From assembly GCA_965197905.1 (NCBI GenBank), contig CBDAOB010000003.1, positions 257,937 through 321,936 on the forward strand: a stretch of 64,000 bases of DNA. Direction: 5' to 3'. This document shows positions 29,677-60,000 of the stretch, piece by piece; position 1 is the first letter of the stretch, and every line of letters starts with the position of its first letter. Source of the DNA: Candidatus Latescibacterota bacterium. GTDB taxonomy: Bacteria; Latescibacterota; UBA2968; UBA8231. Below the pieces are notes generated by a model. The model ran no database searches and was not told where the DNA came from. It worked only from the letters and a program-made list of their open reading frames with translations. A program made the translations under genes and the position numbers.

Positions 29677-30609
29677 ATGATGCTGGAAATGAGTGAGCGC
29701 GAGAAGTTTCTCATGGACTTGCAGGGTTTTCTGCATGTAAAGGACTTTCTGTCTACCGAAGAAGTACGGATCCTCAACGAGGCCGTCGATGCCAATGTAG
29801 ACGAGGAAGCGGAGAATTTCTTTCCCAAGGGTGCCAAGTACGGCGGCGGCATGGACGGGCAGTCCAACAAAGGCACTGCAGAAGGAATGCTGACTTGGGA
29901 GCAGCCGTGGTGCCAGCCCTTTCGCGACATGATGGCTCATCCGAAACTCATCCCATATCTCAATACGCTCTTTGGGCGCGGTTGGAGATTGGACGAACTG
30001 CCATGGGTCAGCTTTGCCAAGAAAGGCACGGGCGGTCACGGATTGCACGGTACCACCAGTCGCTTGTTTGACGGCGCCTTCTTCTACCACTACGCCAACG
30101 GCCAGATACGAACGGGCGTGGCTATTTTCCAGTTTCAACTGGCTGACATCAATCCCGGAGACGGGGGGATAGCCGTAATTCCGGGAAGTCACAAAGCAAA
30201 TTTCGAATGCCCGGAAGATATAATGCTCTACAGCGCCAACCGGGAAGTGGTGCGCAATGTGGCTGGCAAGGCAGGGGATATGGTGATTTTTCTCGAGGCT
30301 ACCATCCACGGGGCTCTGCCCTGGACGGCAGAGCACAATCGGCGTTCCCTCTTCTACACCTACGGCCCCAAGTACCTCAGTTTTCAATCATACTATGTCG
30401 AGACCAGCCAGCCCGAGTGGGTGAGCGAACTGACAGATGTGCAACGCGCCGTTCTGGAACCGGCCTATAACTATAACCGCCCTCTGCTGGAGGACGACGG
30501 AGCGACTCTGGTGCATCCCGGGCAAGAGCCGACACCTCACCGTCCCCGGAATAAGGACGAGATGGCGAAAGCTGAACCAATGGACAAAGCTGAAAGGATT
30601 GAGAGTTAA
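29677..30609 (+). CDS. PhyH-like Fe(II)/2OG dioxygenase
   Basis: GFLHVKDFLS.EEV...HGTTS...IPGSHKAN...IHGALPW. Confidence 0.65.
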   Translation: MMLEMSEREKFLMDLQGFLHVKDFLSTEEVRILNEAVDANVDEEAENFFPKGAKYGGGMDGQSNKGTAEGMLTWEQPWCQPFRDMMAHPKLIPYLNTLFGRGWRLDELPWVSFAKKGTGGHGLHGTTSRLFDGAFFYHYANGQIRTGVAIFQFQLADINPGDGGIAVIPGSHKANFECPEDIMLYSANREVVRNVAGKAGDMVIFLEATIHGALPWTAEHNRRSLFYTYGPKYLSFQSYYVETSQPEWVSELTDVQRAVLEPAYNYNRPLLEDDGATLVHPGQEPTPHRPRNKDEMAKAEPMDKAERIES

Positions 30610-30628
30610 ATGAAGTCGCGCCCCAATA

Positions 30629-31450
30629 TCAGCCTGAGCCTTCAGTCGAGTGTAAATATTGCAGCTGGTCTTCAATCCAATCTCGACCGAGGCCATGGCG
30701 AATCCCACGAAAATGACCAATTATCCAATCTCGAGCCGGATGATTAACCTGGTGCAACTGGTCGACAACCGCTTCTTGATCGTAGTCCACTTGCCTGAAT
30801 TCGATCGTATGCTTGGCGGGGTCTGACTGGATTACGACGTAGCTGGCTCGGAGATCGGGTGTCATTGGATTGCTGATGGCACCAACATTTATTGCTCGCA
30901 TACCGGTGACCGAGACGTCAAGAGTCCGATGGTGGTGCCCGCCGAGGACAACGTCGGCTTTGCACCCCGCCAGGACAAAGGCAATTTCATCTTCGCTCAT
31001 CCCAACTTTGATACCAAGCCCGTCGTCACGGCCAGGAGCAGCATGGACGCCCTATACGGTGGTCTCATCAGGGAGTTGCGTCTCAATCTGGAGGGGCAAT
31101 TTGGTTAACCAGTCAAGCCAACCAGCGCTCGTCACAGCCCCTTGCGTCCAGGCGAAGGTTCCAGCGCAATCCACCAAAGCAGTTAACTTTGATGAATCCT
31201 GAGCTGCTTCCTCCATCGTAGGCGGCGGTCGATCTCCGGAGAATACATAACGATCGGTGTTTCCACGGATTATTCGCACGTTTGGCAACTCGGTCACTCG
31301 CTCAAGAACACCAACTGGATCGGGACCGAGAGCCACAAGATCGCCGAGGATCCAATACTCGTCGAAGTGACCCAAGCCATTGATGTCCTCCAGAACTGCA
31401 TCTAGGGCTACTGTGTTACCGTGAATATCAGAAAACACTGCTAACTTCAT
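30629..31450 (-). pseudogene. metallophosphoesterase (YfcE-like) with in-frame TAG stop
   Basis: MKLAVFSDIHGN...ILGDLV...GNTD... then TAG at 31049-31051 in frame, followed by GVHAAPGRDD...GGHHHR; 822 nt = 274 codons in a single frame. Confidence 0.6.
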
Positions 31451-31470
31451 AGTTCACTCACTTCGCGATT

Positions 31471-31555
31471 TCATTTAACGTTCTCGCCGTGCCCGAACCG
31501 CGAAGCGGTTGCTCGAAGTGCGAAGAAGCCGGTCACTGTGTGTTAACCGCCCAAT
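31471..31555. repeat. attC-like palindromic element, family A
   Basis: tcATTTAACgttctcgccgtgcccgaaccgcgaagcggtt...gtGTTAACcg; 21 bp upstream of the MPP gene start, just downstream of the SPFH gene end. Confidence 0.55.
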
Positions 31556-31556
31556 T

Positions 31557-32444
31557 CTATTTTGATTCACCAAGATGCATCAACGGCAGAGGCATGGGGC
31601 TGTCACCGTCAATGAAGTACACCTTGGCCGCAGGGTCTTTGGAGATGGCTTTAAGGGCTTCCAGCGCCTGGAGTTTGACGTAGTTGGGATTCTTGCCAAT
31701 GGCGGCGTTAATTTTTTCAATTTCATAGGCTTGCACATCTGCAAGTACGCGGCGCTGAGCGGCCTGTTCTTCGGCGGCAGCGCGTTCCGCCTGAGCCGCC
31801 GCTACCTTCTGTTGCTGTTCTGTACGAAATCGCTCCAGCTCTGCTTTCTGCTTCTCAACCTCCTGCTCGCGCTCCTTCTTCGCCTCAATCGCTTTTGTAA
31901 TAAATGGGGGCAGGGCAATATCGCGAAGAAGCACAGCGCCTACCTCGATGCCCTTCGGACCCAGGTAATCGCGCAAACCCTCCAACAGAGCCGTCTGCAA
32001 GGTGACCTGAGATTCCTCAAGAAAGAAGTCCTCGGCTCGTTTGACTGCCTTGCCTTGCTCACGTATTAGTGATCGCAGCTTTGGCACGATGTGCACCTTG
32101 AGGACATCCTGTGCAGTGCCGGTCTCCTTCAGGGTGCGCGGGGCATCTTTGCGGGTGAGACGGTACTGCACGCTGACATCAATCTTGGTCTGTAGCTGGT
32201 CCTGGCTGGGGACGCTAGCCTGCTCCAAATGGGTCTTTTGACGCACATCGTAGAGATGCCAGGCGTAGAGCGGATTTACGGGAATATGTAGCCCTGCCTC
32301 ATAAGGCTCCGGTTTCACACTGCCGAACAGTGTGGCGACCGCTACATGCCCAGCTGGTACGCTCTTGTAAAAGTTACTGCCAATCGCCCAGACAATGATC
32401 ACTATCACGACTGTAATAATGAGAGGCCTTGGAATCTGATTCAT
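31557..32444 (-). CDS. SPFH/band-7 (prohibitin/HflK-like) membrane protein
   Basis: N-terminal TM plus SPFH core and an E/A/Q-rich coiled coil. Confidence 0.7.
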   Translation of the reverse strand: MNQIPRPLIITVVIVIIVWAIGSNFYKSVPAGHVAVATLFGSVKPEPYEAGLHIPVNPLYAWHLYDVRQKTHLEQASVPSQDQLQTKIDVSVQYRLTRKDAPRTLKETGTAQDVLKVHIVPKLRSLIREQGKAVKRAEDFFLEESQVTLQTALLEGLRDYLGPKGIEVGAVLLRDIALPPFITKAIEAKKEREQEVEKQKAELERFRTEQQQKVAAAQAERAAAEEQAAQRRVLADVQAYEIEKINAAIGKNPNYVKLQALEALKAISKDPAAKVYFIDGDSPMPLPLMHLGESK

Positions 32445-32649
32445 TATCGCTTCCTCCTGTATGATCTAGCATGAATACCGACTCGAATCTTACCTCTAAT
32501 ACATTACTGCTATATCAGATCTATGCCACCGATTGTGACTTCGCCGGTTTGCGAAGCATATCAATACTGAGCGTACACGACTGGTGCGTCAACGAGCGGT
32601 GTATCCACCTCAGAGTTTTACGGCCCATGCTCTTGCGCTGCAATCCGAA

Positions 32650-33609
32650 TCATTCCGCCGGCCACGCGTCGAGCCCAAGAAGCCGTCGGCCGAGCGGGCT
32701 GAGCGGGCACGACGGCACATCGTCCTGGCCGGCGACCCGCTCCGGCACCGGACGCCCATAGTCGGTCTGCAGCCCCTCCCGCCACTGTGTTATCCGACTG
32801 CGGCGCTCGGCCTCGAGCCCGCCGCACTTCTCACCCAGCGCACTGCCGTCATTGCTTGGAGGTGAGCTCGGCCAGAATATCCGGAGGCCGGTTTCGTGGC
32901 CCTGCTCTGTCGCCGGCCACATCGTCATGAATTGAGCAAGTCGCGGTTTCGACGAAGTGTTGTAACAATGGCCGTGCGGGTTGAATGAATCCCAAATTAA
33001 AAAATCACCGGCCTTGCCCGCAATGGGCGTTGGGCTCTCCAGTCCCTGCTCCATCGGCACACCGTTGCTAAACCCAAACTCGAAATCGCCGTTCCTTGAG
33101 GCGTGCCAGGTCTCGTAGCGGTCCTGGAACCCGGGGACACACTGAAAGGTGCCTTGATCTGCGGCCGTGTCCTCCAAATAGACTACCGCCTGGAACAGCC
33201 TGAAGCGCTTCGGGGTAGTGGCCGCCGGAAAGTCCCAGTGCAGCAAACCGCGCGGGTCGTCGGTCACGCCCCACCCCGGCCTGTCAGCCCGGAGCGGCGG
33301 CTTGAGGATGCAGCGGTCGAGGTTGACCCACAGGTTGTCCGTCCCCCACAGATCGGCGAAGGCGCGGTGGATTTTGGGGCTCTGGCGCACGCGCCACATC
33401 GCCGGCGTGTGCATCTGTCGCATAAATCCGTACTTCTGCAGATTGTCGCCGTTCGGATCCTCATACCAGGAGTCCGGGTTGTTGCGGTCCATCCGCATGT
33501 GGCTCCAGATGCCGTCTACCACGGCGGCCAAGTCCTCGTAGGGGACGGAGTCGGGGATGACCACGTATCCTTCCTCCTCCATGTGCTGATGGTCCGCCGC
33601 GGTCAGCAT
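32650..33609 (-). CDS. PhyH-like Fe(II)/2OG dioxygenase
   Basis: GYVVIPDSVPYEDL...HWDF...NPHGH pattern. Confidence 0.6.
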   Translation of the reverse strand: MLTAADHQHMEEEGYVVIPDSVPYEDLAAVVDGIWSHMRMDRNNPDSWYEDPNGDNLQKYGFMRQMHTPAMWRVRQSPKIHRAFADLWGTDNLWVNLDRCILKPPLRADRPGWGVTDDPRGLLHWDFPAATTPKRFRLFQAVVYLEDTAADQGTFQCVPGFQDRYETWHASRNGDFEFGFSNGVPMEQGLESPTPIAGKAGDFLIWDSFNPHGHCYNTSSKPRLAQFMTMWPATEQGHETGLRIFWPSSPPSNDGSALGEKCGGLEAERRSRITQWREGLQTDYGRPVPERVAGQDDVPSCPLSPLGRRLLGLDAWPAE

Positions 33610-33643
33610 GCGTGCGCTCCTGTGGTTACGTGAGACATTCTGA

Positions 33644-34234
33644 CTAATCTCTCAAAGCACAGCATCTGATCCATGTTCCACTGGACCAAAGATCCAGAGT
33701 CCGGAAGCCATTGCTCGTCAGACCACACTCCAGATCTTTAGCTTTCCAATAAGTAAACCATCGCGGCAGTGATTTGTCATAAGGACCATATTCCCATCCC
33801 TCTCCAGAGCCTTCCTTCACACTCATAAAAATGACTCCCTTTGGCCTTAGGACACAACAAAATTCCCGTAGTGTTTGAGCTACAACGTCTCGTTCGACAT
33901 GAAGAAAGGAGGCATTTACCCACAAGCCATCAGCAATGGGCTTAAAGGGAAGGTGTTCCATATCCGTCTGCACGAATAATCCAGGGAAGTGGCGTTTTCC
34001 AACTTTGATCATCTGGCTTGATAATTCAACACCAACAACGCGAAATCCTCGATCTCGTAGCTGTTGGGCGTCGAAACCTGGACCACATCCAATGTCTAAA
34101 ACTAGACTACCCTGCGTCAGATGTTGCGTGAAACGGTCCAGATTCTCCTTAATCCGGCCTCTGTCCCTGTTTCGTTCGAGAAAGCGCTCAGCAATCTGGT
34201 TATAAGTTTGAGTCGTGCGAGTTTTAGCTGGCAT
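33644..34234 (-). CDS. class I SAM-dependent methyltransferase
   Basis: VLDIGCGPGFDAQQLRDRGFRVVGVELS. Confidence 0.7.
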   Translation of the reverse strand: MPAKTRTTQTYNQIAERFLERNRDRGRIKENLDRFTQHLTQGSLVLDIGCGPGFDAQQLRDRGFRVVGVELSSQMIKVGKRHFPGLFVQTDMEHLPFKPIADGLWVNASFLHVERDVVAQTLREFCCVLRPKGVIFMSVKEGSGEGWEYGPYDKSLPRWFTYWKAKDLECGLTSNGFRTLDLWSSGTWIRCCALRD

Positions 34235-34255
34235 GCGCTTTCTGACAGTGAATTG

Positions 34256-34273
34256 CTGTCATATATGACGTGG
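34256..34273. repeat. collapsed attC-like remnant (termini only: tgtcat|atatgacgtggg)
   Basis: 22 bp upstream of the methyltransferase start; resembles fused left and right ends of the element. Confidence 0.3.
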
Positions 34274-34543
34274 GATTCCTCTCTCCGGTGCCCACTCGAT
34301 CAATCACTGAATCGACAGTTGATTCTTGTGGAACTCGATGGCCTCCTGCACGTGGATATCCCAATACTCAAACTCGATGACCTCCTGGGTACTCTTCGTA
34401 CTCATGTGGCATTCCGAGAGGCTTGAGATGGGCAGCGAACTCCCGATTCTCCTCGAGGAGGTAGTCCTCCGTACCAGCGGAGCCGTCGGTTTGATGTTAT
34501 GGGATGTGCCCCTCCGAATTCAAGATAATGTGATCAGCGCTTC

Positions 34544-35149
34544 TCATCGAAGCAGAGTAAACAGGTCGTCCTGATGGTGACGCGCAGCCCAATGAAGGGG
34601 CTTCTGGCCAGCACGATCGAGTACGTTCTTATCTGCGCCGTGTGCCAAAAGCAGGTCTACAAACTCTTTGTGGCCATAAGCCGCCGCTAGGTGAAGCGGT
34701 GATTCGCCGACTACAGGTGGGGAAGTGTTGAACATGTCGGTTGTGCCCTGCGTGGTTTGACAGTTCACTTCAGCCCCTTTATCGATGAGAAGTTGACCAA
34801 TAGATAACAAGCCCTTATACGCCGCGGCCATTAACGGGGTCTCGCCGCTGCCCGAGGTGGCATTGGGATCCATACCCTGATCGAGAACGAACTGAACGAT
34901 CTCTTCCTGGTCCTCCCATACGGCCAGATGCAATGCGGTGCCATCCTGGCCCACTGTGTTCAGGTCTGCACCATGCTCCAAAAGCAACTTGATGATATCT
35001 ATGTGGCCAAAGGTCGCCATCATCAGTGGGGTACCGCCCTCGGAGTTTTTTGCGTTAATAAGCTCAGGATCTTTCCTCAGTAGGTTCCGTACCGTCTCAA
35101 TATCGCCCTTAAACGATGCGTTAAGGATATCTTGTTGATCCTGTTCCAT
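34544..35149 (-). CDS. ankyrin-repeat protein
   Basis: repeated G.TPLH.A......IV..LL..GAD.N motifs. Confidence 0.8.
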   Translation of the reverse strand: MEQDQQDILNASFKGDIETVRNLLRKDPELINAKNSEGGTPLMMATFGHIDIIKLLLEHGADLNTVGQDGTALHLAVWEDQEEIVQFVLDQGMDPNATSGSGETPLMAAAYKGLLSIGQLLIDKGAEVNCQTTQGTTDMFNTSPPVVGESPLHLAAAYGHKEFVDLLLAHGADKNVLDRAGQKPLHWAARHHQDDLFTLLR

Positions 35150-35181
35150 GCGATTCGCTCCTGTGATTCATAGGTGGCATT

Positions 35182-35275
35182 TCCCATAACGTTCTCGCCG
35201 TGACCGAACCGCGAATGCGGTTGCGCGAAGGGCGCGAGCCCGAGCCGGGCCACGGAGGTGTTACAGGACGTGGGG
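35182..35275. repeat. attC-like element, family A
   Basis: ccATAACgttctcgccgtgaccgaaccgcgaatgcggttgcgcgaagggcg...GTTACAGgacgtgg. Confidence 0.55.
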
Positions 35276-35300
35276 CACTCAAGCGACCGAACAGTTCCCG

Positions 35301-35395
35301 TACGAGTTTCGCCGGTTTAGCGAACCCGGGCAGCTGGTTGCCAAAGGCCAACGCGCGAGCGCCGCAGCGCAAAACCTGCTGTTAAGCGAAGGTGC
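35301..35395. repeat. attC-like element, family B (adjacent to the previous one; empty cassette?)
   Basis: ccggtttagcgaaccc...ggttgccaaaggccaa...gcgccgcagcgc...ctgctGTTAAGcg. Confidence 0.5.
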
Positions 35396-35403: not shown

Positions 35404-36018
35404 CTATCTGAGCACTTCGAGAATCTGCTCAGGACGTTGCCGTTTTTCAGCGTAATCAAAAGGCGTCTCTCCCTTTGAGGACACCAGTTCCTTGTCGGCA
35501 CCAGCCGCTAGCAGAAGCTCGATGACCTCTTTGTCTGCGAACGCTGCCGCGAGGTGAAGGGGTGCCTCGCCATAGGTTCGTGGAGGATCGTCACTGGAAG
35601 TCGGAGCGTCATCGTGGCTCCTGTTCACATCAGCGCCCGCCTCAATAAAGAACTCGACCACCTCAGGCTTGTTCAGCTTGGCACCAATATGGAGACCGGT
35701 TAGGCCGTTGACTGCTGAAGGCAGGTTGATATCCGCGCCTGAATCCAGATAGAGCTGCAGGTACTCCAATTGGCCACGGCCGGCTGAGAACATCAACAAC
35801 GTTCCTTCGTCGAATGTATTGTGATTGACATCTGTCCCATTGAGGAAGAGATAGCGCATGATTGCGCCATGCTCAGAGGTTTCAACCATAGGGGGGATTA
35901 CAGCCGCAGTGATACAAGAAGCATCCACACCACCCTCTATCAGTTGACTCACACGCTTGTAGTCGCCTTCTCTGACGGCCAGTTTCAGTAAATCGTTTTG
36001 GCCCGTCTGTTCAGACAT
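35404..36018 (-). CDS. ankyrin-repeat protein
   Basis: start moved to MSEQTGQNDLLKLAV (GGAGG RBS); ANK repeats follow; the upstream extension is Arg/Gly-rich junk. Confidence 0.75.
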   Translation of the reverse strand: MSEQTGQNDLLKLAVREGDYKRVSQLIEGGVDASCITAAVIPPMVETSEHGAIMRYLFLNGTDVNHNTFDEGTLLMFSAGRGQLEYLQLYLDSGADINLPSAVNGLTGLHIGAKLNKPEVVEFFIEAGADVNRSHDDAPTSSDDPPRTYGEAPLHLAAAFADKEVIELLLAAGADKELVSSKGETPFDYAEKRQRPEQILEVLR

Positions 36019-36122
36019 GTACCCTCCTTGCTGATATATGATGTGGGCTTTACTCCGACAAATAGAAATTGACCTACCTTCAGCCGCGCCGGCTTCCGGA
36101 GCTTCAGGGCTTCGTTCTGCCG

Positions 36123-37115
36123 TTAATAGTCTACACCACGCACGCCGTCGACCACTCTGCCCAGCGCATCCAGTCGGGAATGGACGTCCGGTGAAAGACG
36201 GCCCAAAGCTGCGCAGCCGACGTTTTCCTCCAGTTGTTCCACTGTCGCTGCACCAGGGATCACGGTGGCTACATCCTTGTCTGCCAGCAGAAATCGCATT
36301 GCAAGCGCGGCCAGACTGATCCCGATCTCTTGATGGATCGCATAGAGCTCTGCAAAGCGAGCCCGAAGGTCGTCGTCCATCCAATCGGGAGGATGTTCTA
36401 TCCACTCTTCACGAGGAAAGGCCAGTTCCCCCTGCTGCAGAGGCGCCCCGAGTACCACACCTTGGCCCAATTCCTTGGCCAGTGGCAGAAGGTACTGTCT
36501 CGCGTTGCGCCAGATCAGGCTGTACTGAAATCCGACCAGCACGACTTCCACGGGGAGAGTGATCTCCTGCAGTATCTTTGCCAGGAGGTGAGCATTGTTG
36601 CCGGAAATGCCGAGATGCTTCGCCATTCCCTTCTCCTTGGCCCACAACAGGAACTGCGTCACCGGCGCGTTACCGTAGTCGTAAACGCCGTCTGCGCAGA
36701 TGTGCCGTGTCTTGCGCGGCGTGACCTCGTCCTGCCAATATACCCTCCAATCGGCCTCGTGGATGTAGAGGATGTCCACGCAATCGCGCCGCAGAGCCCG
36801 CAGCGTCTGCTCGAACTGCACCTTGAAGGCGTTCAACTCGCGGTACGGACCGGTCCGCCAGTCCCATCGTCCGCACTTCGTCCCCAATATATATGGTTCC
36901 TTTCGCCCCTGGAGAGCTTCCCCTAGGACCTCCTGAGAATTTCCGTAGAGGGGAGCGGTGTCGAAATAGTTCACTCCCAGTCCCAAAGCGCGATGGACAA
37001 CACGAGTAGCTTCATCGCGCGCCGTCGCTCCCTCACTGATGAAGGCCCCGCCCAAGCCAACCTCGGTAACCTCCAGACCTGTCTTTCCCAACGGCCGTTT
37101 GCTGATTCCGGTCAT
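36123..37115 (-). CDS. aldo/keto reductase
   Basis: LGKTGLEVTEVGLG...FDTAPLYGNSQEVLGEAL...YILGTKCG. Confidence 0.8.
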   Translation of the reverse strand: MTGISKRPLGKTGLEVTEVGLGGAFISEGATARDEATRVVHRALGLGVNYFDTAPLYGNSQEVLGEALQGRKEPYILGTKCGRWDWRTGPYRELNAFKVQFEQTLRALRRDCVDILYIHEADWRVYWQDEVTPRKTRHICADGVYDYGNAPVTQFLLWAKEKGMAKHLGISGNNAHLLAKILQEITLPVEVVLVGFQYSLIWRNARQYLLPLAKELGQGVVLGAPLQQGELAFPREEWIEHPPDWMDDDLRARFAELYAIHQEIGISLAALAMRFLLADKDVATVIPGAATVEQLEENVGCAALGRLSPDVHSRLDALGRVVDGVRGVDY

Positions 37116-37127
37116 ACGCCAAGTCTC

Positions 37128-37245
37128 CTTCGAATGAAATTCCGGCTTGCCCTTGCACACGCCAAAGGCGTCTTACTGCCCGAAGGGCCAAGGCGCCATC
37201 GGCGCCGTAGCGTAAACTGCGCTGTTAACTGACGTTTCCACAACC
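37128..37245. repeat. attC-like element, family B
   Basis: ...cccgaagggccaaggcgccatcggcgccgtagcgtaaactgcgctGTTAACtgacg; 13 bp upstream of the AKR start. Confidence 0.55.
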
Positions 37246-37279: not shown

Positions 37280-37630
37280 CTAGCTGTCCGAGGTGCGCGG
37301 CTCACCTCCAAAACGGAGTACATTGCCATCCAAATCGGCGACATGCATCTCGCAAGCCCATGGATTATCGATCAAATCGCCTTTGACGTGCGCACCCGAC
37401 GAACCGAACTCGGCATGAAGTGCTTCAATGTCCTCAACGCCCACCCAGATTCTCCCGCTTGCTTCTCCGGATAAACTGGCATTCAGGAATATCTTCCAGC
37501 CAGCTCGACTCACAGAGGCAAACGAATCCTCGTATGTCCAATCCACATCGAAGCCCAAGGCCTTCTGATAGTACTCCAGGCTACTGTGAAAGTCGGAACA
37601 ACTCAGAATGGGAATTATGTTTTCTACCAT
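37280..37630 (-). CDS. VOC/glyoxalase-family protein
   Basis: 116 aa; ILSCSDFHSSLEYYQKALGF...DLDGNVLRFG. Confidence 0.6.
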   Translation of the reverse strand: MVENIIPILSCSDFHSSLEYYQKALGFDVDWTYEDSFASVSRAGWKIFLNASLSGEASGRIWVGVEDIEALHAEFGSSGAHVKGDLIDNPWACEMHVADLDGNVLRFGGEPRTSDS

Positions 37631-38538: not shown

Positions 38539-38603
38539 TTCCGCTAACGGCCTGCCGGTTTGCGAACCCCCAAGCGAGGTATGTAGGGCTGCGTGAACCG
38601 AGA
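38539..38603. repeat. attC-like element, family B (partial)
   Basis: ctaacggcctgccggtttgcgaacccccaagcgagg... Confidence 0.4.
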
Positions 38604-38663
38604 TGATATCTGATGTGGTTTTTTAAGTTCCCTTTACAAATGAAGGCCAAATAACGTTCCGGA

Positions 38664-50140: not shown

Positions 50141-50203
50141 ATGCGGATGCGCCTATCAAGGGTATACTATCCCGTAAGTGCATAAAGACCATCGGACACA
50201 ATT

Positions 50204-51350: not shown

Positions 51351-51437
51351 GTCGGCTAACGGTTCTCCTGGCCCTGAACCGCGAATGCGGTTGGGCGGAG
51401 GCGCGCATGCGCCGTAGCCAGGGCCAGGGTGTTACCG
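51351..51437. repeat. attC-like element, family A (left end divergent)
   Basis: taacggttctcctggccctgaaccgcgaatgcggttgggcggaggcgcgcatgcgccgtagccagggccagggtGTTACCg. Confidence 0.45.
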
Positions 51438-51502
51438 ACGAATCAATCCTTCGATAATTCTTTGATGTCGCCCAAAGAATTGGATTTGCGACTGTCCCGG
51501 CT

Positions 51503-52565: not shown

Positions 52566-52655
52566 TTGTCGTCTAACGTTCTCGCCGTGCCCGAACCGCG
52601 AAAGCGGTTCCGCGAAGGGCGAACGCCCGAAGCCGGGCACGGACGTGTCGTATGT
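52566..52655. repeat. attC-like element, family A
   Basis: tgtcgtcTAACgttctcgccgtgcccgaaccgcgaaagcggttccgcgaagggcgaacgcccgaagccgggcacggacgtgtcg. Confidence 0.55.
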
Positions 52656-52694
52656 TGTTACCTGAAGTTGTGGCCGGGGAGGCTGGGAGGGATC

Positions 52695-53033
52695 TTAGCT
52701 ATCGACTCCCAGACTGAGCTTGCAGGGTTCAATGGCGTCCAGTTCCTGCGCTTCAGACTGAGTGGCGTGATACAGATCCCATCTAAGTTGTAGATTAAGC
52801 CAAAACGCGGGCGAGACATCGAAATACTTCGACAAGCGCAGTGCCGTGCTTGGCGTGATTCCCCGCTTACCATTCACCAGTTCATTCACGCGTTGGTATG
52901 GTACTCGAATGGCGGTGGCCAACTCACGTTGAGTCAGTTCTAACGGATCCAGAAACTCACGTACGAGCATCTCACCAGGATGGGTCGGAACACGATGGGT
53001 AGGAATACGTACCATAGCAGCCTCCTTTACCAC
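52695..53033 (-). CDS. higA: HigA-family antitoxin (XRE HTH), second copy
   Basis: HPGEMLVREFLDPLELTQRELATAIRVPYQRVNELVNGKRGITPSTALRLSKYF. Confidence 0.7.
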   Translation of the reverse strand: MVKEAAMVRIPTHRVPTHPGEMLVREFLDPLELTQRELATAIRVPYQRVNELVNGKRGITPSTALRLSKYFDVSPAFWLNLQLRWDLYHATQSEAQELDAIEPCKLSLGVDS

Positions 53034-53291: not shown

Positions 53292-53612
53292 TTAGATCTC
53301 ACGCAATCTAGGCCCATCGATGCTGGGCACGAAAGCGGTCTCGACAACTACCGAAACACCGGACGCTAGCTGCACCTCGAAGAGTCGGTACATCACTTCA
53401 AAGGAAGTACCGCCGACCTTTTTGGACCATTCCCGATCAGACCAACCAAGACCGTCGAAAACAACGTCCTTGATATCATCCTTGACCAACAGCGGCAGTG
53501 ATAGAGCCTTTGAGATCTTCCTCGCAAGTGTGGTTTTTCCAGCTCCCGGTGGACCTGTTATGACAATAACATTTGGAATCAATTTATCATCGCCTGAGTG
53601 TATCTTGTGCAT
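53292..53612 (-). CDS. P-loop NTPase/kinase-like protein (AAA_33-like), probably C-terminally truncated
   Basis: VIVITGPPGAGKTTLARKI Walker A; only 106 aa; stop abuts the higB remnant. Confidence 0.5.
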   Translation of the reverse strand: MHKIHSGDDKLIPNVIVITGPPGAGKTTLARKISKALSLPLLVKDDIKDVVFDGLGWSDREWSKKVGGTSFEVMYRLFEVQLASGVSVVVETAFVPSIDGPRLREI

Positions 53613-53717
53613 TTCCTATAACGTTTCACCGATTGCCGAACTCGCCGATAGGCGAGTTGCCGACAGGCCAAGGCGGCGAAGCCGCCGTAGCGGCAAACGA
53701 GTTGTTAAATGACGTGG
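53600..53717. repeat. attC-like element, family B
   Basis: catttccTATAACgtttcaccgattgccgaactcgccgataggcgagttgccgacaggccaaggcggcgaagccgccgtagcggcaaacgagttGTTAAATgacgtgg. Confidence 0.55.
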
Positions 53718-54342: not shown

Positions 54343-54450
54343 TGTCATTTAACGTTCTACCGATTCCCGAACCTGCGAAGCAGGTTGCCAAAGGCCAAGC
54401 CGCGGAGGCGGCGCAGCGGCAAACGCGTTGTTAAATGACGTGAACATCAA
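54343..54450. repeat. attC-like element, family B (best-preserved copy)
   Basis: tgtcATTTAACgttctaccgattcccgaacctgcgaagcaggttgccaaaggccaagccgcggaggcggcgcagcggcaaacgcgttGTTAAATgacgtg: complementary 7-bp cores, internal aacctgc-gaa-gcaggtt hairpin. Confidence 0.6.
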
Positions 54451-54465: not shown

Positions 54466-55038
54466 TTAGCGACCTAGTTCTCCAAGTAGCTTTTTGTGAA
54501 CTGCCTGAACTATGTAGCGCATGGTGATCAACGCCACTATGATGCCGAGTACCTTGCTCACGTTGGCAGCAATGCCTGTCCAGAATTGCTTTTGAGCATA
54601 CTCTTGGACGGTGCGTAAGTTCAACGTGCGTCCGGCTGCGTCTATTATTGTTATGCTTCCTGCTTCAAGGCCCTCGACGCCGGATGCGACTTGGTCGGCA
54701 ATCGCTGCAACCTGCACCTCCGAGAGTGGCGAAGCGGAGGTAACGGTGACCGAGGCTTCACGATGGCCCCCAGAGCTCGTTATTGGCGTTGAGAGCTGGA
54801 CTTTGGCCGCCGAGACTCCGTCAATGGCAACGACGCTCGCAGCCAATTTTGCTTCGAGTTGCTGTTGCGCCGCTACAACAGCTCGAAGTTCCTCTGCCGA
54901 TAACGGCGCGTCTGCCTTCGGCATTATCTCTGGGAGTACGTCATAGCCAAGGTACATGCCGACCAGCGCACCTGCGACTACGTACATAATCGCAGGATAT
55001 TTCGTGAGTGCCTCTTTCGGTTTCATGTTTCCCTCCAT
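54466..55038 (-). CDS. FliF/YscJ-type ring-building-motif membrane protein (miniature FliF-like)
   Basis: N-terminal TM; SAAKVQLSTPITSSGGHREASVTVTSASPLSEVQVAAIADQVASGVEGLEAGSITIIDAAGRTL aligns with FliF RBM2 (SARVHLAMPKPS...ASVTVTLEP...VVHLVSSAVAGLPPGNVTLVDQSGHLL); C-terminal TM; 190 aa against about 550 for FliF. Confidence 0.5.
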   Translation of the reverse strand: MEGNMKPKEALTKYPAIMYVVAGALVGMYLGYDVLPEIMPKADAPLSAEELRAVVAAQQQLEAKLAASVVAIDGVSAAKVQLSTPITSSGGHREASVTVTSASPLSEVQVAAIADQVASGVEGLEAGSITIIDAAGRTLNLRTVQEYAQKQFWTGIAANVSKVLGIIVALITMRYIVQAVHKKLLGELGR

Positions 55039-55069: not shown

Positions 55070-55172
55070 TGTCATTTAACGTTCTCGCCGTGCCCGAACC
55101 GCGAATGCGGTTGCGCGAAGGGCGAATGCCCGAAGCCGGGCCACGGGCATGTTAAGTGACGTGGGACCTACT
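55070..55172. repeat. attC-like element, family A (best-preserved copy)
   Basis: tgtcATTTAACgttctcgccgtgcccgaaccgcgaatgcggttgcgcgaagggcgaatgcccgaagccgggccacgggcatGTTAAGTgacgtggg: two internal GAAT-loop hairpins. Confidence 0.6.
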
Positions 55173-55191: not shown

Positions 55192-56061
55192 TTACGAAAT
55201 CCCTACTTTTGATAAGAGGTTCGTCGCTTTGTCAGTCAGCACATTGATGTCATATCGCAGTGCAGTTGGGTCCTTGAGTTCGTTTGTTTGTCTCAACGTG
55301 TCAATTTGGACAAGTCGCTTGGCTTGCAAAATCGAATTCGGTTCATCCCGAATGAATTCACAAACGAACCTAGGCAAAAAGTCGACGTCGCCGTTGGTTT
55401 CAAGAACGCTATCGACACAGCCAAATTCGTCTATGAGACGTTTCGCCCGCTTTGGTCCGACCCCAGGAATGCCTCTGATGTTGTCAGTAGGATCGCCCTT
55501 CAGCGCGAGATAATCGGCATAGCAGTATGGTGCAACACCAATCTGCTGAAATATGCGATTGGAATCATACACTTCCATGAGGCCGTTAACGTAGCGGGCA
55601 ACAGCCACTCTATCCTCCACAAGTTGCAGGAAATCATTGTCATTCGAACAGATAAATACGAAAAGGCCACGCTCAACGAGTGATTTGGCAGCGCTGCCGA
55701 TTTGATCATCAGCCTCGCAGTCTGGAGGTTCCACGTACGCGACGTTCGCGAGGTCCAGAATCTGTTTGATCACAGGCAGTTGAAGAAACATCCCTGTGTC
55801 CTCATTCACTCGATTGGCCTTGTAATCAGAGGATATTGCCAATCTACCGTCACATCCGGTTTCGGAGTCGAAGACAACCATCATGTGCGTCGGCTCCAAG
55901 TCTCTGCACACGGAGCGGAGTATTGCCAAAAAACCGTACACCGCATTGACTTGGACGCCTCCCTTTGTGCGGGCGGCCGCAGGGACACCGAAATACGACC
56001 GATAAAGGAAATTGTGACCATCTATTAGAACAACTCTATCGTGAGTACCCACGCTTACCAC
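55192..56061 (-). CDS. 5'-3' exonuclease (FEN/Pol I N-terminal-domain-like, PIN fold)
   Basis: VVLIDGHNFLYRSYF...DSETG...CEADDQIG...LALKGDPTDNIRGIPGVGPKRA (H3TH). Confidence 0.7.
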   Translation of the reverse strand: MVSVGTHDRVVLIDGHNFLYRSYFGVPAAARTKGGVQVNAVYGFLAILRSVCRDLEPTHMMVVFDSETGCDGRLAISSDYKANRVNEDTGMFLQLPVIKQILDLANVAYVEPPDCEADDQIGSAAKSLVERGLFVFICSNDNDFLQLVEDRVAVARYVNGLMEVYDSNRIFQQIGVAPYCYADYLALKGDPTDNIRGIPGVGPKRAKRLIDEFGCVDSVLETNGDVDFLPRFVCEFIRDEPNSILQAKRLVQIDTLRQTNELKDPTALRYDINVLTDKATNLLSKVGIS

Positions 56062-56076
56062 GCCGTTATATTTCTT

Positions 56077-56109
56077 CCCATGTCACTTAACGTTCTTCGT
56101 GTCCCCGAA
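56077..56109. repeat. attC-like element, family A, truncated by IS256 copy 2
   Basis: catgtcACTTAACgttcttcgtgtccccgaa followed directly by the IS left IR; 16 bp upstream of the exonuclease start. Confidence 0.5.
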
Positions 56110-56217
56110 GAGCTATAATCAAAAGGTGTGGAAATACACAGAAGGCGATCCTACCCTTCCTTTGTAATTAGACATTACACGCGCCGGGGCTGTCCCGGCA
56201 GGAAGAGGAGAATCGCC

Positions 56218-56739
56218 ATGCCACAACCTAAGCTGAGCACCGCGGAAATGTCCATGCCCACGTTCGAAACGTTGGAAGCGTGGACGCGGTCGCAGATTCA
56301 GTCTTTGATGCAGTCGGTTTTGGATGAAGAAGTGACGCAGGTGCTGGGGCGGTCGCGCTACCAGCGTCAGGCCCCGTTGGACGCACCCGGCGGCTATCGA
56401 AATGGCTACGGGAAGCGGCGGCGACTGTCCTGTACCTCGGGCACGATCGAGGTAAAACGTCCACGCGTGCGAGGTCTGGAAGAGCGCTTCGAGAGCGCCA
56501 TTCTGCCGCTGTTTGCGCGGCGTACGAAGGAGGTGGGTCAGCTGTTGCCGGAACTGTATCTGCACGGTCTGTCCCAAGGCGACTTCGAGCTGGCGCTGCG
56601 CGGCCTGCTGGGAGCGGGAGCGCCGCTGTCGCCGTCCTCAATCGCGCGTTTGCGGGATAAGTGGATCGTCGAATACCACGCCTGGCGCAGCCGACGGCTG
56701 GATGACCGCGAGCTGGTGTACGCCTGGGCCGACGGGATC
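56218..56739 (+). CDS. IS256-family transposase, exon 1 (copy 2)
   Basis: identical to 18483-19004. Confidence 0.75.
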
Positions 56740-58880
56740 GTGCGCCACGAGGCGCCAGAGAACCGGGTGGGATGCAAGGACCCACCAACGGGCTGTCGCA
56801 GCAGCCCGTTGAAGCTGGAGGCAGCCTGACCCTGGGAGCGCAGGGGAAGGTGGAAGCAGCCTCGACAACGACAGAGTGGAGTGGCACCTCCAGACACTCC
56901 ACGTCTGGCAAGCAAGACGGAATGGTGTAACCCGAAGTGAACCAGTGATGGAACCCCCTTTAGCGGCCCGCCAACCCAAACCTGGTGGATAAGGGTTGGT
57001 ACGCAACGCACGTGGTCGGATATATGACCGACTGCGACTCTGGGGAGGTGTGATACCCACCGAAGCAGAGGCCTTGGAGAATGCCTGCGGCGTACCCAAG
57101 GCGAAGTTGCAGGGGAAAAGCTGGGCACCTCCCCCGTCAAACGGTTCATGGTGAACGTGGGAACCGAGCCGAGTCCGACCGTTATCGGGGCAGCGCGCTG
57201 TCCGCTGTGGGGCTTGGCAAGGGACGGAGCCTCTGTAGTAGTCCGCGAGCGGGAAAGCCGCTTACATGGCGAAGGGAGGCAGCAAGTTGCGCAGTGGGGT
57301 ACTGGAAAAACAGGAGGACGCCGGTGAATGCCAGCGCTTCGTGGCCCGAGGCAGAACAAGCCCGTAATCGAGTACTGGAAATCCAGACCAAACTGCACCG
57401 TTGGGCTGTAGAGGATCGAAGCAAGTGCTTCGACGACCTGTTCAACCTGGTGTGTGACCCGGCGTTTTTGAGTGTAGCCTGGCGTCGGGTGCGCAGCAAC
57501 AAGGGTGCTCGTTCGGCCGGAGTGGACGGACAAACGGCCTACTCTGTGGAGACGGAACGCGGCGAGGAGGCCTTTCTCGCCGAGGTGCGGGTTGATCTGA
57601 AGACCCGCAGTTTCCGGCCTCTGCCCGTACGCGAGCGGTTGATTCCGAAACCTGGCACAACGAAGAAGCGCCGGCTCGGCATCCCAACCGCTCGGGACCG
57701 AGTGGTCCAAGCCGCACTCAAGCTGGTGCTCGAACCGATCTTCGAAGCGGACTTCAAGCCGTGCTCCTACGGCTTCCGCCCGAATCGGCGGGCTCAGGAC
57801 GCCATCGCCGAGATTCATCAATTCTGCTCCCGCTCTTATGAGTGGGTGGTGGAGGGCGATATCCGTGCTTGTTTCGATGAGATTGATCACGCAGCCCTCT
57901 TGGACCGCGTGCGTCGACGTATCGGTGATAAGCATGTTCTGAGGCTTGTAAAAGCGTTCTGCAAGGCCGGTGTCCTCACGGAACAATCGGTGTTGCAAGA
58001 AAGCACTTCGGGCACTCCGCAAGGCGGTATTCTCTCACCGCTGGTGGCAAATATCGCCTTATCCGTCCTCGACGATTATTTCACTGAGGTCTGGAGAAAG
58101 GTGGGCGCTACCTCCAGTGCGCGACAAGCGCATCGGCGAAAGGGGCTACCGACTTGTCGGCTTGTCCGTTACGCTGACGATTTCGTGCTGCTGGTGGCGG
58201 GCACCGAAGCTGCAGCGTATGACCTGCGCGACCAAGCGGGGGTGACTCTCACCCCCATGGGTCTGCACCTGTCGGAGACGAAGACCGCCATCACGCACAT
58301 CAGCCGTGGCTTCGATTTCCTGGGTTTTCGCATTCAGAAGCGACGGAAACCGGGCCCGGTTGGCGCACGCATCTATACGTGGCCAAGAAAGGAATCTCTG
58401 GCCCGGTTGAAGAGCACGGTGCGCGCAGTCACGAGAACGGGTCGGCAGAGGCCGTTGAAGAGCCTTCTGCGCCAACTCAATCCGGTGTTGCGGGGGTGGG
58501 CCAACTACTTTCAGTACGGGGTGTCGAAGGCCACTTTCAACTACGTGCGGGGCTTCACTTGGCGCCGCGTAGTGCATTGGCTGCGCCGCAAGCACCCGCG
58601 CTTTAATTGGAGGAAGCTGAAACGCCGCTACCTGCCAGGATGGTGGCCCACCGAGGACGGGATTGCTCTTTACAACGTCGGCGAAGTAGCAGTGACTCGT
58701 TACCGCTATCGATCGGCGCGGATCCCTTCTCCCTGGCCTGCGACAACCGGATGAGACTCTGCGGTCACACGGCACCTTGTGGAGAGCCGGATGCGTGGTA
58801 ACGCGCACGTCCGGTTCGGAGGGCGGGCCGGAGAAACCCACATCACGCGTGTGGCGCAGGGCGCTCCGGTCCGACCCTAC
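56740..58880 (+). mobile_element. group II intron, RT-encoding (copy 2)
   Basis: identical to 19005-21145. Confidence 0.85.
57318..58754 (+). CDS. group II intron RT/maturase (copy 2)
   Basis: identical to 19583-21019. Confidence 0.8.
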   Translation, partial: TPVNASASWPEAEQARNRVLEIQTKLHRWAVEDRSKCFDDLFNLVCDPAFLSVAWRRVRSNKGARSAGVDGQTAYSVETERGEEAFLAEVRVDLKTRSFRPLPVRERLIPKPGTTKKRRLGIPTARDRVVQAALKLVLEPIFEADFKPCSYGFRPNRRAQDAIAEIHQFCSRSYEWVVEGDIRACFDEIDHAALLDRVRRRIGDKHVLRLVKAFCKAGVLTEQSVLQESTSGTPQGGILSPLVANIALSVLDDYFTEVWRKVGATSSARQAHRRKGLPTCRLVRYADDFVLLVAGTEAAAYDLRDQAGVTLTPMGLHLSETKTAITHISRGFDFLGFRIQKRRKPGPVGARIYTWPRKESLARLKSTVRAVTRTGRQRPLKSLLRQLNPVLRGWANYFQYGVSKATFNYVRGFTWRRVVHWLRRKHPRFNWRKLKRRYLPGWWPTEDGIALYNVGEVAVTRYRYRSARIPSPWPATTG

Positions 58881-59597
58881 TACGTCAAAGCCGGGCTCGA
58901 GAAAGAAAAGGCCGCTCTCCTGGTGGTCATCGGCGCCATGAGCGATGGGCGCAAGGAAGTCTTGACGATTGTCCCAGGCTATCGCGAATCGAAGGAGTCG
59001 TGGACGAGCGTGCTGCGCGATTTGCGTGACCGCGGACTGAGCGCGGCGAAGTTGTTGGTGGCGGATGGGCACCTGGGTATTTGGGCCGCCCTGGCGCAGG
59101 TCTGGCCGGAGACGGCGGAACAGCGGTGCTGGAATCACCGCCTCCTGAACGTGTTGGATAAGCTGCCTAAACGCGTGCAGGCCGAAGCGCGGCAACTGCT
59201 GACACAGATCCCCTACGCGCCGACCCGTCAAGACGCGACCAAACGCCGCGATCAATTCGCCAAACGATTCCACCGCGAATGCCCAGACGCCGTAGATATC
59301 CTCGAGCGCGATTGGGACCGTATGGTGGCATTCTACGACTTTCCCGAGGCCCACTGGCAACACCTGCGCACTACCAACGTCGTTGAAAGTCCCTTCGCTT
59401 CGGTACGGCTGCGAACCAATGCGGCCAAGCGCTACAAGAAGGTGGCCAATGCCACCGCCCTCATATGGCGGGTACTGATGGTGGCCGAGAAACGATTTCG
59501 CCGACTCCGTGCACCGCATCTTATGGCTGACGTGTACGCCAATGTGCGCTACGAAAATGGATCACACATCGCGCAAAGGAAGAAGATTGCCGCCTGA
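58881..59597 (+). CDS. IS256-family transposase, exon 2 (copy 2)
   Basis: identical to 21146-21862. Confidence 0.75.
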   Translation, partial: YVKAGLEKEKAALLVVIGAMSDGRKEVLTIVPGYRESKESWTSVLRDLRDRGLSAAKLLVADGHLGIWAALAQVWPETAEQRCWNHRLLNVLDKLPKRVQAEARQLLTQIPYAPTRQDATKRRDQFAKRFHRECPDAVDILERDWDRMVAFYDFPEAHWQHLRTTNVVESPFASVRLRTNAAKRYKKVANATALIWRVLMVAEKRFRRLRAPHLMADVYANVRYENGSHIAQRKKIAA

Positions 59598-59626
59598 GTC
59601 GTTTACACACCATTTGACCCAAGCTC

Positions 59627-59761
59627 GATGCTCTTGTTCAGAAGGACGTAGTGCCTGATATCGCGCCTTGCAGAATCGTCGTACGAATCGAAAGCCGCCA
59701 CCTGTCCGTCCGAAAGCGCGTCGTGTTCACCTTGGCCGCAGAGTACTGTTATCCTGTCCAT
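59627..59761 (-). pseudogene. 5' fragment (45 codons) of a gene truncated by IS copy 2
   Basis: ATG at 59761, 9 bp downstream of an attC-like element; MDRITVLCGQGEHDALSDG... runs straight into the IS right end. Confidence 0.35.
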
Positions 59762-59769
59762 TTTCTTCT

Positions 59770-59855
59770 GTTGGTCAACGTTTTACCGTACCCGAACCCC
59801 GAAACGGCTGCGCAAAGGGGCCCGAAGTCGGGCACCGGACGTGCCATGATAGCTG
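59770..59855. repeat. attC-like element, family A-like (rightmost of the array)
   Basis: tggtcAACGTTttaccgtacccgaaccccgaaacggctgcgcaaaggggcccgaagtcgggcaccggacgtgccatg. Confidence 0.45.
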
Positions 59856-60000
59856 GCGCGGCTGCTTTCACGGCGAAGCTTCAGAGGGCCACATACAGCA
59901 CGCACCTTTTCCGCACAGCGATTCTTACTCAATCCAAATTACCCAAAACAATACGTCAATGGGTAGGAGAATTCTAGCAGAGACCTTGGACAAGAGAGTC

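Follow-up and report, generated by a model that had tools for sequence, protein, structure and literature searches.

Hairpin elements and genes of the array

We analysed a 64,000-nt stretch of a Candidatus Latescibacterota genome (contig CBDAOB010000003.1; the whole stretch is called the window below, with positions counted from its first letter), in which imperfect palindromes resembling the attC sites of integrons separate functionally unrelated minus-strand genes between 30.6 and 59.85 kb; this part of the window is probably a piece of an integron-like gene-cassette array without a recombinase, and related genomes carry such arrays with a recombinase gene at one end. Repeat finding over the window, the starting point, gave several families of 30-72-nt direct repeats, which lie only within about 31-56 kb. 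An nhmmer profile built from 10 seed copies recovers 16 copies in the window, on the plus strand every time. A covariance model (R1; 96 positions and 25 pairs, from 64 copies of the window and related genomes), run over the whole 64 kb on both strands with filters off, gives 15 matches at E<=0.005, all on the plus strand between 31,470 and 59,850; the minus strand yields nothing, nor do 1-31,000 and 60,500-64,000, and its sole further match is weak (60312-60402, E=0.14). The elements are 76-105 nt long, fall into two subfamilies, A and B (L stem of the CCGTGCCCG type versus the CGGTTTGCG type), and contain GAA/GAAT-loop mini-hairpins. They are, from left to right:

30604-30620, plus: leftmost remnant, an element 3' end GTTAAATGAAGT read from the sequence, beside the stop of the first cassette gene
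31470-31551, plus: attC-like, subfamily A, 3' arm degraded (R1 57.2 bits, E=2e-12; nhmmer)
about 32536, 34265 and 34520: short remnants
35181-35269, plus: attC-like, subfamily A (R1 66.7 bits)
35295-35390, plus: attC-like, subfamily B, left core degraded (R1 32.8 bits, E=5e-6)
37129-37233, plus: attC-like, conserved in its 3' half only, about 37177-37236 (R1 23.6 bits, E=0.0013; nhmmer 37177-37236)
38539-38614, plus: attC-like, 5' half kept, 3' half degenerate (R1 25.5 bits, E=4e-4)
40609-40705, plus: attC-like, subfamily B variant (R1 38.4 bits, E=2e-7)
41592-41679, plus: attC-like, subfamily A (R1 73.2 bits)
42385-42470, plus: attC-like, 5' part of an intron-split element (nhmmer 42382-42468; R1 22.4 bits, match 42385-42484)
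43213-43247, plus: 3' part of the intron-split element (repeat family D6; nhmmer)
50203-50296, plus: attC-like, subfamily B (R1 60.8 bits)
51351-51439, plus: attC-like, with an L stem of its own, CTGGCCCTG/CAGGGCCAG, and the best-folding copy (R1 57.6 bits; DNA fold z=-5.7)
52568-52656, plus: attC-like, subfamily A (R1 65.9 bits)
53613-53713, plus: attC-like, subfamily B (R1 62.1 bits; fold z=-5.1)
54344-54439, plus: attC-like, subfamily B (R1 80.2 bits)
55071-55160, plus: attC-like, subfamily A (R1 78.6 bits)
56079-56109, plus: 5' fragment of an element, cut by an insertion sequence (nhmmer and sequence)
59774-59850, plus: rightmost element, degraded, right core lost (R1 21.3 bits, E=0.005)

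The tally is therefore 16 recognisable elements plus three or four remnants. The remnant at 30604-30620 is the left edge of the array and resembles the right ends of the 50203, 53613 and 54344 copies, and the split element at 42385 has an uninterrupted homologue in a related genome (locus L007, 4268-4364; L numbers denote our fetched loci). The elements at 35181-35269 and 35295-35390 lie just 25 nt apart, giving a unit without an open reading frame (ORF) between two sites. Rfam release 15, searched over the window at gathering score and at E<=10, returned no attC family and matched only group II introns. A scan for strict RYYYAAC...GTTRRRY cores with a folding filter recovered just three of the elements; for these repeats the strict form is thus too restrictive.

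The genes between the elements, called from an ORF list and assigned functions with Pfam, are all on the minus strand:

30629-31000 and 31052-31450, minus: metallophosphatase, split in two
31557-32444, minus: SPFH protein
32650-33609, minus: PhyH protein
33644-34234, minus: methyltransferase
34544-35149, minus: ankyrin protein
35404-36405, minus: ankyrin protein
36123-37160, minus: aldo-keto reductase
37280-37630, minus: glyoxalase
37795-38463, minus: S51 peptidase
38664-39446, minus: hypothetical protein
39518-40546, minus: Zn-ADH
40788-41552, minus: PNP
41703-42008, minus: HigA
42018-42383, minus: HigB
43270-43857, minus: hypothetical protein
49409-50140, minus: SDR
50453-50761 and 50882-51187, minus: small hypothetical proteins
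51503-52510, minus: PhyH-like protein
52695-53033, minus: helix-turn-helix (HTH) protein, HigA-like
53292-53612, minus: zeta-toxin fragment of 106 amino acids
53807-54391, minus: DUF1706 protein
54466-55038, minus: YscJ-like protein
55192-56061, minus: 5'-3' exonuclease

Two of the cassette genes are visibly broken, the split metallophosphatase and the zeta-toxin fragment. Some gene boundaries have no element, for example those of the four genes between 31551 and 35181. The 30 kb to the left of the array (1-30000) are also mostly minus-strand, with genes of varied functions (methyltransferases, GrpB, FMN reductase, sulfatase, PhyH, FGE-sulfatase), short intergenic gaps and no elements found; there a glutamate synthase domain is split across ORFs 22761-23294 and 23309-24355.

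Insertions and interruptions

Three features break the alternation of elements and minus-strand genes:

42471-43212, minus: ORF-less group II intron remnant inside an element (RF02003, 106.8 bits, 43055-43194; RF00029, 39.2 bits, 42504-42616)
43945-49160, plus: block that breaks the minus-strand array, with zero elements inside
44379-45266, plus: PhyH, in the block
45810-47096, plus: sulfatase, in the block
47147-47689, plus: orf180 (180 amino acids), in the block
48207-49157, plus: second PhyH, in the block
56110-59632, plus: insertion sequence (IS) of the IS256 family, 3.5 kb, without a target-site duplication

The plus-strand block is flanked by 1.2-kb direct repeats (43967-45200 and 47795-49160), which are 99% identical over their first 300 nt and 94% identical over a 129-nt stretch near the right end. 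We considered these repeats as 'IS3-like' copies and rejected the idea, since they are duplicated PhyH genes on either side of the sulfatase. A second candidate, that the PhyH-sulfatase block corresponds to the conserved chromosomal flank right of the recombinase in a related genome (L017), was also rejected: the sulfatases share 27% identity and the PhyH genes have no match there.

A group II intron of about 2.1 kb (56740-58880) interrupts the IS256 transposase gene; it has 5' GTGCG at 56740, domain 5/6 at 58782-58880 and a 557-amino-acid reverse transcriptase (RT)/maturase ORF at 57081-58754, and joining the exons restores ...WADGI|YVKAGLEKEK... An identical copy of IS and intron lies at 18375-21892 and has an 8-bp target duplication, GTCTATTC. 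That the array copy lacks such a duplication suggests that sequence next to it was deleted or rearranged.

The remnant at 42471-43212 is a different group II intron from the one in IS256. Full-length relatives of it, with an RT ORF, lie inside elements of two related arrays (L010, about 1235-3239; L017, about 2808-4879), on the same strand as the cassette genes. Group IIC introns are known to target attC sites, and the three positions suggest an intron lineage that targets these hairpin sites.

The earlier note, which was made from the letters of this DNA, described an array of at least 17 attC-like elements. Its count was about right, and R1, nhmmer and repeat finding agree with it on strand uniformity, size range, the two subfamilies and the GAAT-loop mini-hairpins; Pfam likewise bears out a gene content typical of sedentary integrons. 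The cassette layout that it described stands in that elements do separate unrelated minus-strand genes, and needs correction in that not every gene is bounded by elements (31551-35181) and that the plus-strand block at 43.9-49.2 kb interrupts the co-oriented genes. An IS does truncate a cassette site, as it stated (56079-56109 is cut); the IS was found to carry a group II intron, and one more degraded element lies further right.

Right-hand end of the array

We found no tyrosine recombinase in the window, as had been claimed, either with Pfam on 60 ORFs (about 35 of at least 140 amino acids) or with tblastn using IntI1 and the recombinase of the relatives described below; the IntI1 query is 100% identical to annotated intI1 in thousands of plasmids. 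A near-identical metagenome contig (L001), reaching 7.7 kb further right than the window, contains no recombinase, and nothing in the window resembles the attI-like region of the relatives. To the right of the last element (59,774-59,850) lie a GntR regulator gene (60063-61001, plus strand) and then an S41 peptidase gene (plus strand). The ORF at 60063-61001, with 312 amino acids, fits an integrase in size and position, and was rejected as one because it encodes the GntR regulator. Just upstream of it, at about 60010-60031, there is a perfect palindrome, CTGTTATAGTCAGATATAACAG, likely a GntR operator unrelated to the array.

Arrays in related genomes

An exact-pattern scan with a degenerate 24-mer taken from the elements, covering one genome per species, returned 14 loci, 13 in Candidatus Latescibacterota chromosomes or metagenome-assembled genomes (MAGs) and one in a Gemmatimonadetes MAG. 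The 8-kb pieces around these loci hold up to nine elements each, in one orientation throughout. In two of them, L005 (OZ244619.1) and L006 (OZ242318.1), a gene for a 312-amino-acid protein with 36% identity to IntI1 (tblastn, E about 1e-39) lies directly right of the array on the plus strand, which is the integrase's place for minus-strand cassettes. We then fetched the contigs of homologues of this recombinase and scanned them with the element models: the gene adjoins an array in 9 of the 11 sampled loci. It is divergent from the cassettes in L005, L006, L016, L017/L018 and L019, and co-directional with them in L021, L025, L031 and L032; the elements of the co-directional loci lie on the other strand and thereby keep the same polarity towards the cassette genes. 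Arrays flank the recombinase on a single side in L016, L017/L018 and L019, which have short recombinases, and in L021, L031 and L032, which have long ones. The two loci without a clear array are L020, where the gene has a housekeeping context, and L023/L024, where the contig ends after one hairpin.

The two layouts also occur at one chromosomal site (Ldh_2, PfkB, peptidase M19, DHDPS, PALP, glyoxalase) in L016 (10001-10891) and L032 (10001-11107): in the L016-type neighbourhood a short recombinase is divergent from the array, and in L032 a long one, 58% identical to the L005 reference, is co-directional. IS91-family elements (Y2 transposase) lie inside or at the end of two arrays (L032, 12252-14193; L031, 20733-21128), one of them preceded by a 242-amino-acid tyrosine recombinase gene of its own; part of the very large family of recombinase homologues may be associated with IS91 rather than with arrays.

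The region upstream of the recombinase gene was aligned for five genomes. The cassette sides are unrelated to one another, and conservation starts exactly at YTAAC|TG, continuing through an inverted repeat, TATGCGAAC-N5-GTTCGCATA, to the start of the recombinase gene. On the cassette (minus) strand the junction reads ...CAG|TTA...; in integrons the crossover takes place at G|TTRRRY. The alignment shows what has the form of an attI-type site beside the recombinase gene in the relatives.

Individual cassettes recur in different surroundings. L006 and L014 have one cassette in common, a gene and its downstream element at about 82-86% identity, and the common stretch is bounded by the TAAC cores of the flanking sites, with different neighbours on both sides, namely unrelated DNA on one and another site on the other. 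Two cassettes of the window also recur beside other neighbours: that of the PhyH-like gene (51503-52510) in L016, at 73% amino acid identity, and that of the HTH gene (52695-53033) in L011, at 81%. These comparisons show the cassettes to behave as discrete gene-plus-site units, bounded at the TAAC core and placed in differing contexts between genomes. Together with the attI-type junction they also imply that the minus strand of the window is the 'top' strand and the plus strand the 'bottom' one, and that a gene owns the site that follows it. The earlier note had chosen the strands in the same way and had looked to related genomes for cassette-wise variation, which is what the cassettes shared with L006/L014, L016 and L011 provide.

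These data also bear on the reading that the palindromes are a family like repetitive extragenic palindromes (REP) or miniature inverted-repeat transposable elements (MITE), or like terminators, accumulating between genes with no cassette biology. The elements are, as this would have it, intergenic GC-rich hairpins downstream of genes, and some loci have one or two copies in 8 kb (L002, L009, L010). Scattered copies in non-cassette contexts, which the earlier note had named as the sign of such a family, did not appear: R1 finds none in about 70 kb of non-array flank beside the arrays of L016, L017, L019, L021, L025, L031 and L032, and none is present in the roughly 105 kb of non-array DNA examined in all (window and relatives' flanks). 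The copies keep a single orientation relative to the genes, whereas REP, bacterial interspersed mosaic elements and MITE are dispersed in both orientations; homology breaks exactly at the TAAC core, where the boundaries coincide with mobile gene units common to differing contexts; a dedicated recombinase and an attI-like site stand at the array end; no REP-associated tyrosine transposase (RAYT/Y1) is present, and no run of T follows the hairpins. We consider this explanation barely credible beside that of a cassette array.

The recombinase at the head of the arrays

The best match of the relatives' recombinase in the PDB is the Vibrio integron integrase VchIntIA (2a3v; E=2.5e-45), ahead of archaeal XerA and of XerD, and the match comes in two stretches, between which residues 179-237 of VchIntIA face only 17 query residues. 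Seven members of the family share 37-40% identity with IntI1 over aligned columns (34% for the Clostridial member P0088), and the catalytic residues (R, K, H-x-x-R, H, Y) are conserved in all seven. They also share a gap of about 41 columns against IntI1, which lies exactly over the IntI-specific additional domain (I2 helix); about 41-59 residues of this domain are thus absent. The long forms have an extra N-terminal domain of about 80 amino acids. A homologue search with IntI1 returned only IntI1-like proteins of at least 74% identity. As far as sequences tell, the relatives' recombinase is the nearest relative of IntI by every comparison made, yet without IntI's defining domain. The recombinase that the earlier note had suggested beyond the right-hand end of the array is hence found there in relatives, although it is not a canonical IntI, being without the additional domain and below the cut-off of the integron integrase model TIGR02249.

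The domain matters for what the enzyme can be called. The I2 helix docks extrahelical bases of the folded site and blocks the second strand exchange, and gaining it is seen as the innovation that turned a Xer-like enzyme into an integron integrase, able to recombine folded single-stranded attC sites safely (Escudero, 2020; PMC7790495). Cury et al. (2016; PMC4889954) define IntI by the additional domain, and hold recombinases without it near attC sites not to be integron integrases. Integration of a folded single strand by a Xer-type enzyme is known from the CTX phage, whose hairpin mimics a duplex site (Escudero, 2020; PMC7790495).

Structure of the sites

The bottom strand of the sites (the plus strand of the window) has the same architecture in 67-86 copies from the window and the relatives. 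At its 5' end (N)TAACG pairs with TGTTA(N), and the pairing often extends outward. There follow a 4-nt bulge, mostly TTCT or TTCC, on the 5' arm alone, then 2 bp, and on the 3' arm a single unpaired base, usually A or T, sometimes C, and missing from a few copies. Inside this extrahelical base is a 9-bp L stem, which leads to a closing three-way junction of short GAA-, GAAT- or GCA-loop hairpins. The L stem occurs in at least eight unrelated sequence versions, each of them still complementary.

On an alignment of 86 copies, 81.6% of cells pair, against 70.7 +/- 0.6% when partners are shuffled (0 of 500 shuffles reach the observed value) and 27-42% when partners are slid by 1-3 columns. Double-sided changes occur in 19 of the 25 pairs, with a covariation score of 0.282 versus 0.117 in shuffled data, and compensatory changes are found at every pair of the L stem, while the R stem (TAACG/TGTTA) is kept in sequence. 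Fitting the alignment to the model biases it towards the structure, yet the slid controls and the wide range of compensatory pair types give a clear result. These patterns show that the sites are selected for intra-strand pairing, with a fixed polarity. Conserved cores with conservation of structure only elsewhere is the design principle of attC sites.

Within the 86 copies TAAC...GTTA is nearly invariant. The earlier note's attC cores stand as regards AAC...GTT, while its full heptamers fit only part of the window copies (ATTTAAC/GTTAAAT fits, CCATAAC/GTTACAG deviates); some of the canonical sites that we read also deviate in the heptamer (GCATAAC). Similarly, the extrahelical bases that it anticipated on the bottom strand lie on the correct arm in most copies, and are A, T or C rather than G where they exist. 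Single-stranded DNA folding of the window copies gives z from -1.2 to -5.7. Several copies are degraded, in keeping with the loss of the recombinase from this array. One element, at 3674-3773 in L012 and identical in L013 (about 5828), is a chimera of an A-type 5' arm, CGCCGTGCCCG, and a B-type 3' arm, TGCAAACACGG; its arms no longer pair, and it is not the product expected of a crossover at the R' core.

The structure speaks to a further possibility, that the recombinase without I2 builds the arrays on double-stranded sites, in the manner of Xer on dif and as proposed for pdif modules. Its Xer-type architecture without I2 agrees with this, and the short inverted repeat of the attI-like region (TATGCGAAC-N5-GTTCGCATA) resembles a duplex core site. 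The two cores of an element are 70-95 nt apart, however, and meet only when the strand folds; the L stem covaries strongly and is free in sequence, which implies selection for a hairpin or cruciform; and the asymmetry between the 4-nt bulge and the single extra base is conserved, with a fixed polarity relative to the genes. Recombination of duplex sites is in our judgement improbable, and we continue with folded single-stranded sites.

Similar loci beyond Latescibacterota

A long-type recombinase without I2 is also encoded after the leu operon on a contig of Marinisporobacter (Clostridia; L025, 10001-20177). After it come seven unrelated genes in one orientation, and each of these has a hairpin of about 75 nt and low GC content, ending in ...AAGAACGTTAT; the bottom strand of these sites begins with ATAACGTTCTT, which is the 10-mer of the Latescibacterota sites. 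In the R1 search that covered them, five of the sites are the top five matches and the other two are within the first eleven, at E from 1e-4 to 1.5, all seven in the expected orientation. The locus has the appearance of an integron-like array, in a phylum from which hardly any integrons are known; IntegronFinder 2.0 reports one complete integron and a few integrase-less attC clusters in all Firmicutes (PMC9024848). In Dehalococcoidia, the gene of one family member is directly followed by a single such hairpin, after which the contig ends.

Reading of the window and proposed mechanism

A cluster of attC sites lacking an integron integrase is termed a CALIN (Cury et al., 2016; PMC4889954). We read the window between 30.6 and 59.85 kb as an integrase-less, partly decayed segment of a chromosomal integron-like (CALIN-like) cassette array of the kind found in Candidatus Latescibacterota, with a probability of roughly 0.8; it is either a relic of the CALIN-like sort or a piece separated from a larger array. 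IntegronFinder calls a CALIN from at least two attC sites that its covariance model recognises within 4 kb of each other; R1, our own model of this repeat family, finds 15 clustered copies. In the terms used for integrons, no integron integrase lies nearby over the 64 kb and the 7.7 kb further right (L001), as in a CALIN, and the window has neither an IntI with the additional domain nor an attI beside an intI gene, as a complete integron would; the promoter-proximal end, where a Pc promoter would drive the cassettes of a complete integron, is missing from it. The best NCBIfam model for the relatives' recombinase is TIGR02249 (integron integrase), which is matched in two stretches at 230.7 bits, though under its curated cut-off of 265. 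Several findings weigh against this reading. The additional domain is thought to be needed for IntI activity, as Escudero (2020; PMC7790495) summarises Messier and Roy (2001), and the L006 recombinase gene carries an in-frame stop. The sites depart from canonical attC in having the 4-nt bulge on the R'-L' arm only and none on the opposite arm, and a single extrahelical base that is A, T or C rather than G and that some copies lack altogether. Only about half of the window copies have full RYYYAAC/GTTRRRY heptamers, some fold no better than shuffled sequence, and R1 detects none of the class 1 attC sites given to it (best, dfrA5 at E=0.74, in the correct orientation and not significant). That the cassettes are mobile is something we infer from genome comparison only, and the recombinase searches covered the window and the fetched array loci rather than whole genomes. 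By the criteria that we examined the window array is not a canonical integron, and 'integron-like' or 'CALIN-like' is the fitting label.

That scope of the recombinase searches leaves room for an ordinary CALIN of a canonical integron, with a normal I2-bearing IntI elsewhere and the I2-less enzyme as a bystander or a Xer-type recombinase with another role. The ruling of Cury et al. (PMC4889954) on I2-less recombinases near attC sites would place our enzyme there, and the L006 copy, a pseudogene, adds to this side. Yet the arrays start within about 250 bp of the I2-less gene, through a junction conserved in five genomes; the adjacency is seen with recombinases that share only 55-60% identity, in either orientation, and extends to the Clostridial genome; the 10-mer ATAACGTTCT is common to sites across phyla, together with this type of recombinase; and no relationship of the sites to class 1 attC is detected. 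We regard an ordinary CALIN as unlikely.

On the reading that we prefer, that of an integron-like array served by the I2-less enzyme, a cassette would be a minus-strand gene, or a few genes, with the 80-105-nt imperfect palindrome after it. The neighbouring recombinase would excise and insert cassettes by recombining attC with attI or with another attC at the AAC/GTT core, using the bottom strand in its folded form and dispensing with the I2 helix by which canonical integrases dock extrahelical bases. Its two binding sites would be the R stem and the L stem, with the bulged region as central spacer, and the one-sided bulge and single extra base may set the choice of strand and orientation in place of I2-docked bases. 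In the window, recombinase and attI are missing, with the IS256 insertion marking where the promoter-proximal end was rearranged or deleted; one site has been invaded by a group II intron whose family also occurs in L010 and L017 elements, and sites and genes are decaying. With recombinase and attI missing and the sites degraded, the array is presumably static unless a recombinase elsewhere acts in trans.

More tentatively, at odds that we put a little short of even, the arrays form an unrecognised integron class in several phyla (Latescibacterota, the Clostridial genome, and possibly Gemmatimonadota and Dehalococcoidia), with an I2-less IntI-like integrase and hairpin sites that share ATAACGTTCT, a one-sided bulge and a single non-G extrahelical base. 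If so, the class would represent either a stage of integron evolution before I2 or another, independently found way of recombining folded single strands, and current software would score such platforms as CALINs only or miss them. Should the enzymes be active, the origin of integrons would be directly testable with natural intermediates, integron-like gene capture would reach phyla thought to lack it, and many elements labelled CALIN might have an unrecognised cognate integrase. The window alone is more modest, a decaying integrase-less cassette array of an uncultivated phylum; the main interest lies in its relatives, where arrays that show all the comparative signs of cassette mobility have an I2-less IntI-like enzyme at their head; this is so in several genomes, for both layouts and in at least two phyla. 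Our literature search, incomplete in coverage, found neither a report tying integrons to Latescibacterota nor a description of integrons with I2-less integrases at their head.

Comparison with known systems

The relatives' recombinase has in common with IntI (VchIntIA 2a3v, IntI1, TIGR02249) the N-terminal SAM-like domain PF13495, the catalytic residues and the C-terminal SPLD motif, and differs in lacking the additional domain and in falling below the family cut-off. With Xer enzymes (XerC/D, archaeal XerA) it shares being a tyrosine recombinase without I2, but it scores 158 bits to IntI4 as against 130 to XerA and 92 to XerD, heads cassette arrays rather than a chromosome dimer resolution site, and is accompanied by hairpin sites of 80-105 nt in contrast to the 28-bp dif.

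For canonical attC sites we used class 1 integron plasmid records (aacA4, blaVIM-2, arr-3, dfrA5, aac(6')-29b). Four sites, from four plasmid loci, could be cleanly delimited, too few for a model, so the architectures were compared directly and R1 was applied to them in reverse. Extrahelical bases of attC are the partnerless bases on the R''-L'' arm; conservation is especially high for a G in L'' and for a T 6-8 nt downstream (Bouvier et al., 2009; PMC2727003). The canonical sites read have spacers of 4-6 nt on both arms and 1-3 extra bases (G, C, T) in the L box of the R''-L'' arm. Our sites resemble them in cores that end in AAC and start with GTT, in a G after the AAC of the bottom-strand R' box, in an extra base that most copies have on the R''-L'' arm of the bottom strand, in a variable terminal structure, in a structure kept while the sequence varies (19 of 25 pairs with double-sided changes, 0 of 500 shuffles), and in a crossover at the R' core, with the gene owning the downstream site (the L006/L014 cassette and the attI junction). 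They differ in that no unpaired central spacer spans both arms, and in the 2 bp, the 9-bp stem and the conserved three-way junction.

The arrays as a whole come close to sedentary chromosomal integrons and CALINs (Cury et al., 2016; PMC4889954). They differ from these in the cognate recombinase of the relatives, which is without the IntI-specific additional domain, in the spacer and extrahelical geometry of the sites, and in the host, a candidate phylum. They share with them co-oriented, promoterless-looking, unrelated small genes with AAC...GTT palindromes, toxin-antitoxin cassettes, pseudogenes, and IS and group II intron insertions; the window, like a CALIN, has no integrase. In the relatives, a recombinase and an attI-type junction stand at one end of the array, in a divergent or a co-directional layout, as in sedentary integrons. 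Both of these layouts are known from integrons.

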